IMG/VR virus record: IMGVR_UViG_2700989168_000009
Origin: a virus
Taxonomy: Duplodnaviria; Heunggongvirae; Uroviricota; Caudoviricetes
Length of the DNA stretch: 15,890 bases
Strand: one strand, 5' to 3'
Shown: positions 1 through 6,858 of the stretch, piece after piece
Position numbering within the stretch: the stretch's first letter is position 1
Layout: each line of letters opens with the position of its first letter
Position numbers and translations under genes: made by a program
Notes under the pieces: generated by a model
The model's database searches: none
What the model saw: only the letters and a program-made list of their open reading frames with translations
Told to the model about the DNA's origin: nothing

Positions 1-1230
1 ATGAGCAGAGCACTTAACAAACTGAGCGATACACAGCTGAGGAAAATCAACGGCACACCCGCCCAAAAAACAGCCTTTCTTAATGACGGTGGAAACCTGA
101 GCGTCAGGCATTCAACCAGTGGCCTTTTAACCTGGTATTTCACTTACAGGGCCGGAACGGGAAGGGGGGCACCACCGGAACGCATTAAGCTGGGAAATTA
201 TCCTGATCTGAGCCTGAAATCAGCCAGGGAAAAAGCCGCCCAGTGTCGCGCATGGCTGGCAGAGGGGAAAAATCCACGTCATGAGCTTAATTACACCGTA
301 CAGGAAGCGTTAAAGCCGGTAACGGTTGGCGATGCGCTCACCTACTGGCTTGAGTCGTACGCAAAGGAAAACCGCGTGGATTATGCCGCCCTGAAAAAGC
401 GCCTTAATAATCACGTAATACAGCACATTGGTGCTATGCCGCTGGATAAATGCGAGCTACGGCACTGGCTGGCCTGTTTTGACCAGGTGGCAAAGCGAAC
501 GCCTGTTACTGCCGGATTCTTGCTACAGACGTGCAAACAGGCGCTTAAGTTCTGCCGGAGGCGGCGCTATGCAATCAGCAACGTTCTTGATGATATGAGT
601 GTGGCGGACGTTGGGAAAAAACCGGATATAAGCGAGCGTGTCTTAAGCACCAAAGAACTGGGCGAATTATTGCAGGCACTGGACAAAAAAATATTCTCCC
701 CCTACTACATCGCGTTAATCCGCCTCCTGATTGTGTTCGGATGCCGGACGGTAGAACTGAGGTTATCGGAGATCAGCGAGTGGGATTTTACCGAAATGCT
801 CTGGACCGTGCCGAAAGAACACAGCAAAACGAAGGTGGCAATATTCCGGCCCATACCGGAAGCAATACTGCCGTTCGTCACGCAGCTGGTGGAGCAGAAC
901 AGGCACACGGGCTTATTGCTGGGGGAAGTGAAACAGGAAACAAGCGTGTCGCAGTACGGCAGATTAGCGCACAGGAGGCTAAATCACCCTCACTGGTCAC
1001 TACATGACATCCGGCGCACCTTTACAACGATGCTGAACGATTTAGGCGTGGATCCTCACGTCGTGGAGCAGCTTACAGGCCACCAGATGCCAGGAATGCA
1101 GCGAGTTTATAATCATTCCCGTTATCTGGATGCTAAACGCAATGCGCTGGATATGTGGACGGAGCGGTTAGGGATACTGGCGGGAACACATGAAAACGTA
1201 ACCACGCTACCAGTAGCCAGAAGAAAATAA
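1..1230 (+). CDS. int: Tyrosine recombinase / phage integrase (P4-type satellite integrase), 409 aa
   Basis: Complete ORF (ATG at 1, TAA at 1228-1230). C-terminal catalytic region with HDIRRTFTT (His-x-x-Arg) and YNHSRYLD (nucleophile Tyr) typical of the phage integrase family. Followed by alpA in the same orientation, as in P4-like islands and PICIs. Confidence 0.9.
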   Translation: MSRALNKLSDTQLRKINGTPAQKTAFLNDGGNLSVRHSTSGLLTWYFTYRAGTGRGAPPERIKLGNYPDLSLKSAREKAAQCRAWLAEGKNPRHELNYTVQEALKPVTVGDALTYWLESYAKENRVDYAALKKRLNNHVIQHIGAMPLDKCELRHWLACFDQVAKRTPVTAGFLLQTCKQALKFCRRRRYAISNVLDDMSVADVGKKPDISERVLSTKELGELLQALDKKIFSPYYIALIRLLIVFGCRTVELRLSEISEWDFTEMLWTVPKEHSKTKVAIFRPIPEAILPFVTQLVEQNRHTGLLLGEVKQETSVSQYGRLAHRRLNHPHWSLHDIRRTFTTMLNDLGVDPHVVEQLTGHQMPGMQRVYNHSRYLDAKRNALDMWTERLGILAGTHENVTTLPVARRK

Positions 1231-1604: not shown

Positions 1605-1793
1605 GTGTTAAGCACTGATCGGTTTATACGTGAAAAAGAATGCGAAAAGCTAACAGGCCTTAGCCGCTCATGCCGCTACCGCCTGGAAAAGGCCGGACAA
1701 TTCCCATCACGTCGTAAACTTGGCGGTCGTTCCGTTGGCTGGTCTTTATCCGAGGTTCTGGCCTGGAAGGATAGCTGCAAGGCAGTTCATTAA
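1605..1793 (+). CDS. alpA: AlpA-family DNA-binding regulator / excisionase-like protein, 62 aa (GTG start)
   Basis: GTG at 1605 preceded by SD AGGGGG (1594-1599). Protein contains LTGLSRSCRYRLEKAGQFPSRRKLGGRSVGWSLSEVLAWK, the hallmark winged-helix signature of the AlpA/Xis family. Sits immediately after int. Confidence 0.85.
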   Translation: MLSTDRFIREKECEKLTGLSRSCRYRLEKAGQFPSRRKLGGRSVGWSLSEVLAWKDSCKAVH

Positions 1794-3231: not shown

Positions 3232-3465
3232 ATGCGTGATATTTACCACGAAACAATAGACCGCGCATTTCTTGCACTTTCTCACAGTGAAAACATGCTG
3301 GAAATATTGCGCATATGGCTTGAAACACTTGGCGACAATGAACGCGACAAACAAAAATCAAGAATTGCCACGGCATTAATAACGCTTCTTGAGCCTGTAA
3401 TAATGGAACTGCAAGAAATAGATCTATTGCACGACAGATATAAAGAACAACACACCGGAGAATAA
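3232..3465 (+). CDS. Hypothetical protein, 77 aa
   Basis: ORF track 3232..3465. SD-like GGACGGGGA upstream. Same orientation as the operon. The overlapping minus ORF 3227..3511 is judged a shadow. Confidence 0.5.
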   Translation: MRDIYHETIDRAFLALSHSENMLEILRIWLETLGDNERDKQKSRIATALITLLEPVIMELQEIDLLHDRYKEQHTGE

Positions 3466-3470
3466 AAATA

Positions 3471-3770
3471 ATGAAACTTAAATATTCTGGCTTAACTGCC
3501 AGTGGCAACACTCACCCTAAATTTACGCGCGGTGATATTTACCGCGACCAGTACGGCGGCATGGTAACGATTAAAGGCGTGGCAGAACGGCGCATCACCT
3601 ACCGCCGTGAAGGTTACGAATATGATTGCGTGATGCCTGTTTATCAATTCCGGCGTGATTTCACGCTGGTACAGGCAGCGCCCCGCAGTAAACCAACCAG
3701 CAGGGAGAAAGCACGCGCCAATATTCAGGAAATAAAAAAGATGCTTAACGTATTCAGGGGTAAAAAATGA
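3471..3770 (+). CDS. Hypothetical protein, 99 aa
   Basis: ORF track 3471..3770. Stop TGA overlaps the primase ATG (ATGA at 3767-3770), suggesting translational coupling. Confidence 0.55.
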   Translation: MKLKYSGLTASGNTHPKFTRGDIYRDQYGGMVTIKGVAERRITYRREGYEYDCVMPVYQFRRDFTLVQAAPRSKPTSREKARANIQEIKKMLNVFRGKK

Positions 3771-5515
3771 AACTGGCACCGAACGTAAAAAAACAGCCAC
3801 GCGGAATAAAACACAAAGACACAGAGGTAATTATCTTTGCGGGTAGTGATGCCTGGTCGCACGCGAAACAATGGCAGGAGCAGGATGGCCCCGCATCCGG
3901 CGATAATGTGCCGCCTGTGTGGCTTGGGCCAAATCAGCTTGCCGAACTTGATGCACTGAAAATTGTTCCGGATGGAAAAAAACGCGTAAGGCTGTACCAG
4001 GCCGGAGAACTGGATTTGGTGGAGACCAAAAAGATTGGTCAGAAGCTGGCGGCGGCAGATATTCAGGACGCAAATTTTTACCCCGAAGGAATGCACGTCC
4101 AGAAGTGTGAAAACTGGCGGCGCTATCTGAATGCTGAGCGTGAAAATATTGCCGCAGGGCTTACCATGCCGGAGCAGAAAAATACGCAACTGGCACAAAT
4201 GGCAGACAGTGAGCGCGCGCAGCTGCTTGCCGAGCGCTTTGATGGCGTTTGTGTGCATCAGGAAAGTGAAATCGTTCACGTATGGCGCGGCGGGGTATGG
4301 TGTCCGGTCAGCACAATGGAACTTAGCCGCGAAATGGTGGTGATCTATTCAGAGCACAGGGCCACTTTCAGCAAGCGCGTAATCAATAACGCCGTGGAAG
4401 CGTTAAAAGTTATTGCCGAACCAATGGGCGAGCCGTCCGGCGATTTGCTGCCGTTCGCCAATGGTGCGCTTGACCTGAAAACGGGGGAATTTTCCCCGCA
4501 CACGCCGGAGAACTGGATCACCACGCACAACGGCATTGAGTACACGCCACCAGCACCAGGGGAGAACATCCGCGATAACGCGCTAAACTTTCATAAATGG
4601 CTTGAGCACGCAGCCGGAAAAGACCAGCGCAAGATGATGCGTATATGTGCCGCGCTGTACATGATTATGGCGAACCGGTACGACTGGCAGATGTTTATTG
4701 AGGCCACCGGAGACGGCGGGAGCGGTAAAAGTACATTCACACACATAGCCAGCCTTCTGGCAGGGAAACAGAACACGGTAAGCGCTGAAATGACATCGCT
4801 TGATGATGCTGGTGGACGTGCGCAGGTTGTCGGGAGTCGTCTTATCGTCCTGGCTGACCAGCCGAAATATACAGGCGAAGGAACGGGCATCAAGAAAATC
4901 ACGGGCGGTGACCCCGTGGAAATTAACCCGAAATACGAAAAGCGTTTCACGGCTGTAATCAGGGCGGTGGTGCTGGCGACCAACAATAACCCGATGATAT
5001 TCACCGAACGGGCCGGAGGTGTGGCACGTCGTCGCGTGATTTTCCGTTTCGACAATATCGTTAGTGAGGCCGAAAAAGACAGGGAGCTACCGGAAAAGAT
5101 TGCGGCTGAAATCCCTGTCATTATCCGCCGATTGCTGGCGAACTTTACCGACTCTGAGAAAGCACGGGCTTTACTACTGGAACAGCGTGACGGTGATGAA
5201 GCTCTGGCAATAAAGCAACAGACGGATCCGGTTATTGAGTTTTGCCAGTTCCTGAATTTTCTGGAGGAAGCACGCGGCCTGATGATGGGCGGCGGTGGCG
5301 ATTCAGTGAAGTACACGACCAGAAACAGCCTTTACCGCGTCTATCTGGCGTTTATGGCGTACGCAGGCAGGAGCAAACCGCTAAACGTAAATGACTTTGG
5401 CAAGGCTATGAAGCCAGCCGCGAAAGTTTACGGACATGAATATATTACGCGGAAAGTTAAGGGAGTAACGCAGACTAACGCAATAACAACAGACGAGTGC
5501 GACGCGTTTTTATAA
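3767..5515 (+). CDS. Replication initiator: primase / SF3 (P4/D5-type) helicase, 582 aa (PICI pri-rep-like)
   Basis: 582-aa ORF with Walker A GDGGSGKST (nt about 4709-4735) and a downstream hydrophobic stretch LIVLADQ as a Walker-B-like element, in the arrangement of the P4-family primase C-terminal helicase domain. An iteron origin lies immediately downstream, as in PICIs. Confidence 0.85.
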   Translation: MKLAPNVKKQPRGIKHKDTEVIIFAGSDAWSHAKQWQEQDGPASGDNVPPVWLGPNQLAELDALKIVPDGKKRVRLYQAGELDLVETKKIGQKLAAADIQDANFYPEGMHVQKCENWRRYLNAERENIAAGLTMPEQKNTQLAQMADSERAQLLAERFDGVCVHQESEIVHVWRGGVWCPVSTMELSREMVVIYSEHRATFSKRVINNAVEALKVIAEPMGEPSGDLLPFANGALDLKTGEFSPHTPENWITTHNGIEYTPPAPGENIRDNALNFHKWLEHAAGKDQRKMMRICAALYMIMANRYDWQMFIEATGDGGSGKSTFTHIASLLAGKQNTVSAEMTSLDDAGGRAQVVGSRLIVLADQPKYTGEGTGIKKITGGDPVEINPKYEKRFTAVIRAVVLATNNNPMIFTERAGGVARRRVIFRFDNIVSEAEKDRELPEKIAAEIPVIIRRLLANFTDSEKARALLLEQRDGDEALAIKQQTDPVIEFCQFLNFLEEARGLMMGGGGDSVKYTTRNSLYRVYLAFMAYAGRSKPLNVNDFGKAMKPAAKVYGHEYITRKVKGVTQTNAITTDECDAFL

Positions 5516-5803: not shown

Positions 5804-6082
5804 ATGCACACTTCAGGGAAATTTAATAAATCATTCAAAAAACGCAGAGACAGAACAGAACCGAAATATCGCGCGTTAGACATGACAGAGCACGCTTTAA
5901 AGGTGGCAATCAGAACGATAGACCGCCACGCGGGGGAAGGATACGCGAAAGCACATCCCGAACTGATAAGCGCATTCATGACCACGACGGCGGCAAATTT
6001 TGCCACGCTGACAGAGCGGGAGATTGCCGAAGCGGAACAGGTAACAACAATCAACGTTAAAACCGGAGAGGTGGAATCATGA
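5804..6082 (+). CDS. Hypothetical protein, 92 aa
   Basis: ORF track 5804..6082, with GAGGGGG upstream. First gene after the ori. Confidence 0.5.
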   Translation: MHTSGKFNKSFKKRRDRTEPKYRALDMTEHALKVAIRTIDRHAGEGYAKAHPELISAFMTTTAANFATLTEREIAEAEQVTTINVKTGEVES

Positions 6083-6384
6083 GCGAACCAAAATTTGGTG
6101 AAAAATTTTACAAGCACAACGGACGGATCACGATTCTGCAAATAAGCGCAGCTACACCAGGCTGGTGGGTTGAAACAGACGAAGGATCCTCACCCGTGGC
6201 ATCATGGGAGCTTTGTGTGCTTAGTTACCCTGACCGCGATGTGTATCAGGATATTCTGCCTGTGATATCCACTGACAAAGGCATGAAACCCGTAGACATC
6301 AAAAACATGGGGTTTCAGTGCGTAATGCTCACTGAAAAAATGATGGAAGAGATGAAAAAGAACAATGCCGGATCGCTTCACTGA
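6079..6384 (+). CDS. Hypothetical protein, 101 aa
   Basis: ORF track 6079..6384. SD GGAGAGGTGG upstream. ATGA overlap with the previous gene. Confidence 0.55.
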   Translation: MSEPKFGEKFYKHNGRITILQISAATPGWWVETDEGSSPVASWELCVLSYPDRDVYQDILPVISTDKGMKPVDIKNMGFQCVMLTEKMMEEMKKNNAGSLH

Positions 6385-6393
6385 GGTGGCAAT

Positions 6394-6555
6394 ATGACAG
6401 CACAAATTGCAGCTTACGGGCAGCTGGTGGGCGACCCGCTGGTAAAACAGAGCAGCAAGGGCACACCGGAGCCGCCAACGGAGAACTACGCAGACCTGAG
6501 AAATGCAGTAAATCGCACTTACGCAGACATGGGGCTGAGCAAATTAGCAGAGTAG
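6394..6555 (+). CDS. Hypothetical small protein, 53 aa
   Basis: ATG 6394 preceded by SD GAGGTGG. Translates to MTAQIAAYGQLVGDPLVKQSSKGTPEPPTENYADLRNAVNRTYADMGLSKLAE. Followed by a strong terminator. Confidence 0.35.
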   Translation: MTAQIAAYGQLVGDPLVKQSSKGTPEPPTENYADLRNAVNRTYADMGLSKLAE

Positions 6556-6577: not shown

Positions 6578-6609
6578 AGCCGGAGCAATCCGGCTTTTTG
6601 TTATTTTTT
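6578..6609 (+). terminator. Rho-independent terminator
   Basis: AGCCGGA-GCAA-TCCGGCT perfect 7-bp stem with a tetraloop, followed by TTTTTGTTATTTTTT. Confidence 0.7.
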
Positions 6610-6618
6610 GTAAATTAT

Positions 6619-6666
6619 TTGTTCGTGGTTGTTCCACGTTGTTCACTGAGCGGATCGGCATATTTT
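6619..6666 (+). promoter_or_regulatory. Phased TTGTTC x3 array (10-bp period) overlapping a candidate promoter of the head/packaging operon
   Basis: TTGTTC at 6619, 6629 and 6639 (GAACAA on the minus strand). Candidate -35 TTGTTC (6639-6644), 16-bp spacer, -10 TATTTT (6661-6666). Internal dyad CGTGG-TTGTT-CCACG. 15-bp core identical to 14298-14312. Confidence 0.5.
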
Positions 6667-6702
6667 ACCCGAACTGAATCATGATTATTCTCGCCCGTGG
6701 TG

Positions 6703-6828
6703 CCAGGACGCTGGGGCCACTTTCCCGCCTGTTAATGTGCTCGCCAATATTCATTACCAGGCGGGAAAACGATCGGTGCGATTACTGATTTCCTTATGAA
6801 AAACGGTTGAGTGTTTGCCGCGTCCTGG
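6703..6828 (+). other. Structured leader upstream of the capsid gene: nested inverted repeats
   Basis: Perfect 11-bp inverted repeat TTTCCCGCCTG (6721-6731) / CAGGCGGGAAA (6758-6768), enclosed by a 9-bp inverted repeat CCAGGACGC (6703-6711) / GCGTCCTGG (6820-6828). Confidence 0.4.
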
Positions 6829-6858
6829 AGTTCCTTACTTAACCCCAGGACTTTTTTT

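Follow-up and report, generated by a model that had tools for sequence, protein, structure and literature searches.

A conserved leader RNA with mutually exclusive pairings precedes the capsid operon of phage-inducible chromosomal islands that form capsids and probably helps to gate it

The window analysed here, a stretch of 15,890 nucleotides (nt) from IMG/VR virus record IMGVR_UViG_2700989168_000009, is a phage-inducible chromosomal island of the capsid-forming kind (cf-PICI) and belongs to the EcCIEDL933 type. At its right end lies phoQ; L001, a near-identical relative, carries the island between roxA and phoQ. Islands of this kind build their own capsids and borrow only phage tails. The packaging operon opens with the major capsid gene, which is followed by the protease, portal, connector, HNH, terS and terL genes. 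The capsid ATG at 6859, as called in the original prediction made from the sequence alone, is separated by 280 nt from the last upstream open reading frame (ORF), and this interval is the subject of the present study. It contains an intrinsic terminator, which a terminator scan recovered where the original prediction had placed one, a phased repeat array, a predicted promoter and a structured, untranslated leader RNA (Table 1). The leader is positioned where control of the capsid operon is possible, as had been proposed.

The RNA spanning positions 6660–6875 folds to −79.6 kcal/mol, compared with −53.4 ± 4.4 kcal/mol for 200 dinucleotide shuffles (z = −5.99, with 0 of 200 as good). Within it, a short hairpin (P1) with a GACG tetraloop is directly followed by a long hairpin (P2). 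The 11-bp inverted repeat reported earlier (6721–6731/6758–6768) is present and extends to the 17-nt arms of P2 with 94% complementarity. A possible weak hairpin, P3, is confined to the lineage of the window and is assigned with low confidence; in the related locus L002, conservation in this region is limited to AUCGGUG. The original prediction overlooked P1 and also a third inverted repeat, GUCCUGGAGUU/AACCCCAGGAC, which forms a hairpin of 7 + 3 bp immediately before the capsid gene. This hairpin looks like an intrinsic terminator, because a run of seven T (U7 in the RNA, 6852–6858) follows directly and abuts the ATG. The capsid start had been described as having no obvious Shine–Dalgarno (SD) sequence. 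One SD-like sequence, AGGA, does exist, but it is buried in the 3′ arm of the terminator-like hairpin. Structure-dependent initiation, which had been suggested for this start, is plausible, as the hairpin beside the AUG holds the only SD-like sequence of the leader.

The perfect 9-bp inverted repeat 6703–6711/6820–6828 is likewise present, and had been read as enclosing the 11-bp repeat in one nested structure. That arrangement is not borne out: the duplex of CCAGGACGC with GCGUCCUGG (−20.5 kcal/mol) overlaps both the P1 stem (6703–6706) and the 5′ arm of the terminator-like hairpin (6822–6828), and is an alternative pairing that competes with the two hairpins. The heptamer CCAGGAC is present twice, at 6703 and 6845, and each copy is complementary to GUCCUGG at 6822. 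This duplication around a shared complement identifies the 9-bp repeat as an antiterminator pairing, incompatible with P1 as well as with the terminator-like hairpin; by sequestering the 5′ strand of the antiterminator, P1 would act as an anti-antiterminator. Copies of CCAGGACGC with at most one mismatch number nine in the window, against 3.25 expected; the extra copies lie within coding regions and were treated as chance.

Table 1 Features of the island and of the capsid-operon leader (positions in the window)
Feature	Position	Strand	Details
int	1–1230		
TTGTTC/TTGTTG array in the int–alpA spacer	1287–1322	−	Four units, 10-bp phase, inverted
alpA	1605–1793	+	62 aa; Pfam Phage_AlpA, E = 5e-18; matches PDB 8c3t (AlpA family phage regulatory protein)
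Primase gene	3767–5515		
Intrinsic terminator	6578–6605	+	Closes the upstream accessory/replication module; stem 6578–6595, then T-run; terminator scan
Capsid-promoter array	6608–6644	+	Four direct repeats: TTGTAA 6608, TTGTTC 6619, 6629, 6639; 10–11-bp phase
Predicted −35 hexamer	6664–6669	+	TTTACC; comparative
Predicted −10 hexamer	6686–6691	+	TATTCT; 16-nt spacer; comparative
P1 hairpin	6697–6720	+	GUGGU G CCAG [GACG] CUGG G GCCAC; −15.6 kcal/mol
Antiterminator pairing, 5′ strand	6703–6711	+	CCAGGACGC; 9/9 complementary to 6820–6828
P2 hairpin	6721–6768	+	Arms 6721–6737/6752–6768; −22.6 kcal/mol
P3, possible weak hairpin	6771–6790	+	−5.6 kcal/mol
Antiterminator pairing, 3′ strand	6820–6828	+	GCGUCCUGG; overlaps 5′ arm of terminator-like hairpin
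Terminator-like hairpin	6822–6832/6841–6851	+	GUCCUGGAGUU/AACCCCAGGAC; −14.1 kcal/mol; then U7
SD-like AGGA	6847–6850	+	8 nt before ATG; −4.0 kcal/mol with anti-SD
Major capsid gene, HK97 type	6859–8016	+	First gene of the packaging operon
Hairpin with U-rich tail after capsid stop	8026–8055		GC-rich, GGGGC-loop-GCCCC
Right-end array	14287–14312	+	TTGTGT, TTGTTC, TTGTTT; near island right end

The islands related to the window were collected through homologues of the capsid gene, irrespective of leader; 58 viral contigs were obtained in this way, along with 80 loci from species-representative genomes. Upstream of cf-PICI capsid genes, at least four leader classes were found. Approximately 35 unique leaders, from about 15 genera of Enterobacterales (among them Rosenbergiella, Providencia, Proteus, Citrobacter, Xenorhabdus, Erwinia, Winslowiella, Serratia, Kluyvera, Rahnella, Pluralibacter, Leclercia, Kosakonia, Pantoea, Enterobacter and Pectobacterium), share one common plan, referred to here as the main type. 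In this plan, P1 (GUGGC A CUCA [GACG] UGAG CC GCCAC), which is homologous to P1 of the window and has a loop and bulges that are nearly invariant across genera, is followed after 0–3 nt by a long, variable P2, a C-rich linker, a 3′ hairpin (UGGUUUC A CGU ... ACG GAAACCA) and, 3–5 nt further on, the AUG. The sequence of P2 differs from island to island, and its architecture ranges from a three-way junction to a simple hairpin. A search with the P1 pattern added 120 contigs; wherever their downstream sequence sufficed, the capsid AUG comes directly after the motif. The main type is present in 153 of 5,426 complete Escherichia coli genomes.

Covariation was assessed in a MAFFT alignment of 33 main-type leaders covering about 15 genera. 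P1, P2 and the 3′ hairpin are 96.2% paired, with compensatory changes at 12 pairs, including nine of the ten basal pairs of P2 and three pairs of P1. The covariation score is 0.244, compared with 0.107 for shuffled alignments (0 of 500 reach the observed value), and slid controls are at most 44% paired. RNAalifold left the 3′ hairpin uncalled because its 3′ arm was misaligned, and the hairpin was set by hand for the pair counts. Folding and covariation of the inverted repeats across related islands, the check put forward with the original prediction, came out in favour of structure, with a fold z of −6.0 for the window and strong covariation among the relatives.

The main type also possesses a long-range alternative, in which the loop and 3′ strand of P1 (AGACGUGA) pair with UCACGUCU in the 3′ hairpin; the positions involved are 98.1% paired in the alignment. 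In the sub-clade L126/L136/L130, nucleotide 15 is changed from U to G, and both of its partners, nucleotide 10 in P1 and nucleotide 117 in the 3′ hairpin, are changed from A to C, although nucleotide 117 is a mere bulge within the 3′ hairpin itself. Such a triple covariation is the pattern that should be seen if two alternative pairings were under selection. A helix of 8–9 bp between the interior of P1 and the 3′ hairpin is available in 106 of 107 unique main-type leaders, versus mostly 5–6 bp in shuffled sequences; in 105 of these leaders, 3–5 nt separate the end of the 3′ hairpin from the AUG.

The leader of the window belongs to a second lineage, which includes E. coli and Shigella and occurs in 360 of the 5,426 E. 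coli genomes. The main-type covariance model matches the window at 6697–6807 with a score of 23.3 bits (E about 1e-5); the alignment places P1 and P2 in register, and all pairs are standard. The inner stem of P1 is CCAG/CUGG in the window and CUCA/UGAG in the main type, amounting to three compensatory pair changes. The antiterminator pairing of the window uses the 5′ strand and loop of P1, and thus follows the same logic as the main-type pairing with another sequence and in a shifted register. The 3′ hairpin of the window is a replacement that bears the U7 tract; U tracts are exclusive to the window lineage, and the C-rich linker to the main type. L002, with 76% identity, keeps P1, P2, the 9-bp pairing and a terminator with U8; the loops differ, and its terminator stem carries one G-C to G·U change and one mismatch turned into U-A. 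The hairpin with a U7–U8 tract is found in most of approximately 30 unique window-type sequences, with L008 and L032 changed in the 3′ arm. No intermediates between the two window-type variants were detected in the E. coli genomes, where L002-type leaders (at least 99% identity) occur in two genomes only. The upstream terminator is kept in window-type relatives despite different upstream genes.

In the window leader, CCUUAUGAAAAACGGUUGA at 6793–6811 resembles the main-type capsid start CUUCAUGAAAAAAC, with which it is aligned by the covariance model, and may be a relic start codon, now heading a four-codon ORF. In that case, the 3′ part of the window-type leader, with its terminator, would be a later insertion. 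A direct repeat (6787–6796/6828–6837) lies near CCUUAUGAAAAACGGUUGA, and the motif is not conserved in L002.

The predicted energies of the window RNA depend on its length. When the nascent RNA reaches 6828 or 6840, the minimum-energy fold contains the antiterminator (−51.4 and −53.9 kcal/mol, respectively). At 6851, P1 together with the terminator reaches −63.3 kcal/mol, about 9 kcal/mol better than the approximately −54.5 kcal/mol obtained with the antiterminator enforced, and in the full leader the advantage grows to 13.5 kcal/mol (−68.0 versus −54.5 kcal/mol). The same nascent-fold behaviour was obtained for three of four main-type leaders tested. With the antiterminator favoured first and P1 plus the terminator later, the folds describe a bistable system in which the outcome is set by the order of synthesis.

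The position of the promoter was derived from 111 non-redundant upstream sequences, with the first base of P1 as their common anchor. None of the 111 departs from T-11, A-10 and T-6, and TTTAC is found at −33 to −29 with a 16-nt spacer, TTT at −33 to −31 being nearly invariant. The hexamer pair of the window matches the sigma-70 consensus at 8 of 12 positions, which is below the threshold of the consensus promoter scan and explains why the scan did not list it. This conservation pattern predicts a weak sigma-70 promoter with a transcript start at approximately 6697–6699. The leader would then be about 162 nt long, with P1 as its 5′-terminal structure; the original prediction of an untranslated leader stands, and its length of about 190 nt, from a start near 6670, would be revised. 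Overlapping the predicted −10 hexamer, GAUUAUUCUC (6683–6692) is a perfect 10-nt complement of capsid codons 2–5 (GAGAAUAAUC, 6864–6873). This pairing would be possible only in read-through transcripts from upstream, where the entire leader would be closed off by it and the start codon hidden; in L002, 9 of the 10 positions are paired, and the complementarity may be due to chance.

Upstream of the predicted promoter, the phased TTGTTC array described previously was confirmed at 6619, 6629 and 6639 with 10-bp spacing, and a fourth unit, TTGTAA, was added; the array spans about −89 to −53 from the predicted start. Two-unit matches to the array occur 11 times in the window, compared with 1.84 expected, and none of 200 shuffles reaches 11. 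In L261 and L001, analysed with their island flanks, arrays are also present upstream of int, and in both islands arrays lie at the two island ends and in the int–alpA spacer (L261, 1194–1282, 2603–2658 and 16062–16087; L001, 1895, 3270–3305 and 16455–16480). Overall, arrays are found at four sites: in the attL arm, in the int–alpA spacer, at the capsid promoter and in the attR arm. Such a distribution is typically seen with excisionase-type proteins that also regulate transcription, for example P2 Cox, P4 Vis and E. coli AlpA. Judged by eye, the array motif varies from one AlpA clade to another and appears to track the clades; three-unit arrays elsewhere were found only in TTGTTC-type islands. 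The arrays are probably binding sites of the AlpA-type regulator/excisionase of the island, and those at the island ends and in the int–alpA spacer are probably excision sites used by AlpA as a recombination directionality factor. The alpA gene is needed for induction of EcCIEDL933-type islands (10.1101/2022.09.08.507074).

P2 Cox, P4 Vis, 186 Apl, lambda Xis and E. coli AlpA share with the island the placement of phased short direct repeats in att arms, beside the regulator gene and upstream of a satellite late promoter, and P2 Cox activates the P4 PLL promoter through such repeats. Unlike these systems, binding of the island AlpA to TTGTTC is a proposal made from sequence, and to our knowledge an AlpA-type protein acting at the capsid promoter has not been reported for cf-PICIs. 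A role of the TTGTTC array as a replication origin, similar to the iterons of P4 alpha, was rejected because the array is identical in islands with different replicases (a primase in the window, a RepA helicase in L001) and recurs at the att arms. A candidate origin was noted in the L002 island, where an inverted pair of CTGTTCACCACTGTTC (4527–4542 on the plus strand and 4658–4673 on the minus strand) lies just downstream of the primase gene and resembles the P4 alpha type-I iterons TGTTCACC.

We favour the reading that a regulated promoter and a bistable cis-acting leader RNA together gate the cf-PICI capsid operon, and assign it a probability of roughly 60%. In the proposed course of events, an AlpA-type protein on the four phased TTGTWM repeats would activate the weak sigma-70 promoter, with transcription starting at approximately 6697. 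The first 24 nt would fold as P1, to be followed by P2. On emerging, GCGUCCUGG would invade P1 through its GACG loop, with loop pairing to CGUC as the likely nucleation point, and form the antiterminator helix with 6703–6711; the CCAGGAC that emerges later (6845–6851) would displace this helix, whereupon the terminator hairpin with U7 would form and P1 re-form. In the state with P1 and the terminator, transcription would halt at the ATG and AGGA would be buried, and in the antiterminator state polymerase would read through and AGGA would be exposed. Because the 3′ hairpin of most relatives is without a U tract, the same competition would there govern ribosome access, and hence translation, only. 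The C-rich linker of the main type might, speculatively, cause Rho-dependent polarity. We favour OFF as the default state, since P1 forms first and P1 with the terminator is the equilibrium fold; for the ON state, something would have to hinder the re-formation of P1.

Several observations weigh against this reading. Termination would be specific to the window lineage, given that most relatives carry no U tract. The triple covariation rests on one sub-clade (3 of 33 sequences) and the window lineage, which represents few independent events, and the main-type 3′ hairpin varies by wobble-type changes only, without double compensation. The window's own island looks defective, with a stop codon in the capsid gene and deletions in perC and ssb. 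No effector was found: the leader has no conserved aptamer-like core and no leader peptide, and the island holds no complementary site elsewhere. Tail-less cf-PICI capsids are moreover made at some level without a helper phage (10.1101/2025.02.11.637232), which implies that the gate is leaky or independent of a helper factor, and that a factor from the helper phage is not strictly needed.

Candidate partners of the leader within the island were considered individually. The search for a trans-acting complementary RNA site elsewhere in the island, mentioned above, was negative. A PerC-family regulator occurs at window-type loci only, and in the window itself it is a deleted remnant, so that it was rejected as a universal partner. 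Two proteins encoded upstream of the leader, phrog_1957 and a ProQ/FinO-family RNA-binding protein, were rejected as partners too. The family phrog_1957 occurs at about 70% of main-type loci, but the window and several main-type islands do not have it. Its members are proteins of 82–86 aa that belong to no Pfam family and are very often encoded less than 2.4 kb upstream of the capsid promoter; in the most numerous single group of loci, the gene is the immediate upstream neighbour (for example, L261 8623–8871 and L002 5712–5972 among the loci with the gene). The ProQ/FinO protein was found at 6 of 102 loci only (the L261 copy at 8102–8632). The region upstream of the leader has been described as a variable accessory region (10.1101/2025.02.11.637232). 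Esr41 and other known small RNAs of enterohaemorrhagic E. coli were also set aside; Esr41 lies in OI-43 and is unrelated to the leader.

A rival explanation is a static structured 5′ untranslated region that does not switch, in which P1 would block 5′-end-dependent mRNA decay, as hp1 of ompA does, and the terminator-like hairpin would insulate the operon or set a fixed level of read-through and translation. In its favour, P1 begins at the predicted +1, P1 with the terminator is the equilibrium fold of the full leader, the search for an effector was negative, and capsids are made without a helper phage. We nevertheless regard this explanation as unlikely, for it does not account for the selected, covarying long-range pairing available in nearly all leaders, for the antiterminator as the minimum-energy fold of the nascent RNA, or for a P1 loop and bulges that hardly vary across genera. 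Another alternative is suggested by HK022, whose putL comprises about 70 nt with two stem-loops just downstream of PL (PMC9378689). P1 and P2 (72 nt, 6697–6768) could similarly be a cis-acting RNA that renders RNA polymerase resistant to the leader and post-capsid terminators without a protein factor. As in put, two adjacent stem-loops stand at the start of a phage-type transcript upstream of terminators (6822–6858 and 8026–8055, the second conserved across cf-PICIs), they are 0–3 nt apart and begin at the predicted +1, and put needs no phage factor, in keeping with capsid formation without a helper. In contrast to put, P2 is not conserved, and its freedom in sequence and architecture is ill-suited to a surface on which polymerase docks; P1 also competes with the 3′ hairpin inside the leader, a conserved feature that put does not have and that this explanation does not account for. 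Homology to put was rejected, as the main-type covariance model finds nothing in the putL/putR region (best score in the HK022 PL–PR region 4.4 bits, on the wrong strand), and a put-like function is considered quite improbable.

Only slightly less credit is given to the notion that the terminated product, which would reach from P1 to U7 and measure about 160 nt, is a small RNA that stands alone and acts in trans, much like the short PR′ transcript known from lambdoid and Stx phages. In the window lineage, a predicted promoter, a structured RNA of suitable length and a strong terminator with an Hfq-type U7 end are all in place. Relatives mostly have P1, P2 and the 3′ hairpin but no U tract, and would release no discrete RNA, which confines the idea to the window lineage; moreover, the leader is directly upstream of the capsid AUG in every locus of the P1-pattern search with enough downstream sequence. 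The original prediction had allowed for either an RNA structure or a protein-binding dyad, and of these the RNA structure is retained. Inverted repeats serving as DNA operators for dimeric regulators are a very improbable alternative: symmetric changes in palindromes can mimic compensatory changes, but the sense-strand G·U pairs, the asymmetric bulges of P1, the unrelated sequences that fill the P2 position in islands with a common P1 and 3′ hairpin, and the covariation of a pairing between strands about 100 nt apart, together with the covariation across dozens of related islands, all argue for RNA. Hardly credible at all is attenuation coupled to a leader peptide translated from ATG 6681. An ATG at −16 to −14 from P1 is fairly conserved, and the short ORF it opens runs into P1, but the ATG precedes the predicted transcript start and lacks an SD, and the ORF varies in length and frame (it has 10 codons in the main type and 36 in the window, and in L002 a 7-nt deletion breaks the frame).

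The preferred model of a gated, bistable leader bears most resemblance to terminator/antiterminator attenuators, such as riboswitch expression platforms, protein-dependent attenuators like the bgl/sac ribonucleic antiterminator (RAT) systems and the 1:2, 2:3 and 3:4 pairings of trp. As in these, an anti-antiterminator (P1), an antiterminator and a terminator overlap within one leader, the last hairpin is followed by a U tract, the alternative pairings covary, and the winning fold depends on the order of synthesis. Of the features that define attenuators, the leader has the hairpin with a U tract (window lineage only), the mutually exclusive pairing, and covariation of both conformers (few independent events). 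It differs from them in having no leader peptide, conserved aptamer, or RAT- or ANTAR-like motif, and in that the last hairpin of most relatives, devoid of a U tract, would occlude the ribosome-binding region only. A riboswitch is not indicated, as no conserved ligand-binding aptamer is present; only P1 and the switching strands are conserved, and P2 is variable. The leader shows no match to Rfam 15 at E ≤ 1 in the window and six related loci that cover four leader classes.

Antitermination by P. aeruginosa AlpA and by the lambdoid Q proteins offers a similar layout, with an intrinsic terminator placed between the promoter and the first lysis or late gene, in the 5′ untranslated region just before that gene. 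P. aeruginosa AlpA, however, is an eight-helix Q21-like protein (PMC9371919), unrelated to the 62-aa Phage_AlpA protein of the island. The two share the name only: the island protein matches Pfam Phage_AlpA and PDB 8c3t alone, with no match to the chains of P. aeruginosa AlpA at E ≤ 10, and fold and size differ. By eye, the predicted promoter has no binding element between −35 and −10, and the initial transcribed region no −10-like pause element.

Inspection of the leader for lambda N/nut elements revealed no boxA with a boxB carrying a GNRA-like pentaloop, the P1 loop being the tetraloop GACG, and the 3′ hairpin has a boxA-like string in its loop that differs from genus to genus. The RfaH recognition element ops (GGCGGTAGnnTG) is absent from the non-template strand of the leader; the 3′ arm of P2 in the window contains GGCGGGAAAACG (about 6757–6768), in which the critical T6 is replaced, and main-type leaders contain nothing similar. 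Motifs for CsrA (GGA), sigma-54 (TGGCAC in P1), boxA/boxB and ops were set aside by inspection as not conserved or incomplete. The ops core GGCGGTAG is confined to a non-homologous leader class from Xenorhabdus (L079 and L089), where it is the 5′ arm of a central hairpin about 90 nt upstream of the capsid AUG. In this class, a segment proximal to the 5′ end competes with an SD-sequestering hairpin; L072 and L082 have AGCGGTAG.

Terminator/antiterminator leaders with SD occlusion are a well-known mechanistic class. The RNA family itself appears to be undescribed in Rfam 15 and the literature searched, as do its link to the cf-PICI capsid operon and the AlpA-type array at the capsid promoter; the cf-PICI preprints searched mention no promoter, terminator or leader for the packaging operon. 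A broader proposal, which we offer tentatively and consider less probable than not, is that the leader represents a new, widespread riboregulator family in which P1 is the receptor of a specific trans-acting factor, giving the satellite a late switch independent of the late regulators of its helper. The factor would be a host RNA-binding protein, or a late protein of the island (for example, the capsid or scaffold domain) in feedback, and the family would extend over a few percent of E. coli genomes and many Enterobacterales genera. If this were true, the late switch would time or dose capsid production, and one lineage would have converted the same switch from translational control to transcription termination. 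The model proposed for the packaging operon has two steps, an AlpA-type array by a weak promoter and then a bistable leader RNA supported by covariation. The leader family also provides two naturally occurring variants whose sensor-side hairpins are the same and whose end is either a terminator or an SD-occluding hairpin, useful for studying the evolution of expression platforms. Knowledge of the gate would help to explain the tail-less capsids made without a helper, and could serve to manipulate satellite transfer.

The capsid gene of the window has an in-frame TGA at 7684–7686 where relatives have TGG (KNAV*VVNS compared with KNAVWV), which splits the 385-codon gene into 6859–7686 and 7687–8016. 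The TGA is either a nonsense mutation, in which case the island would be defective, or a sequencing error. Upstream of the leader, a 53-aa ORF (6394–6555) joins the first 25 residues of SSB to the final 28 of a PerC-family regulator. Relative to L001 (8327–8996), the window has most of ssb and perC deleted and an extra ORF (6079–6384) upstream of the remnant. Four runs of N (49–119 nt) inside the packaging operon (8579–8631, 10393–10511, 10866–10915 and 11356–11404) mark the window as a gapped scaffold and affect the regions where the HNH and terS genes start.

The hairpin that follows the capsid stop codon is kept in nearly all cf-PICIs examined, with differing loops (L261, L002, L118, L063, L126, L113, L072 and L119). 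It looks like a partial terminator in the style of T7 Tphi, which likewise places a hairpin and U tail directly after the capsid stop, or like a 3′ stabiliser. It differs from the leader hairpin in being a separate, downstream element, and would be the second terminator in the operon.

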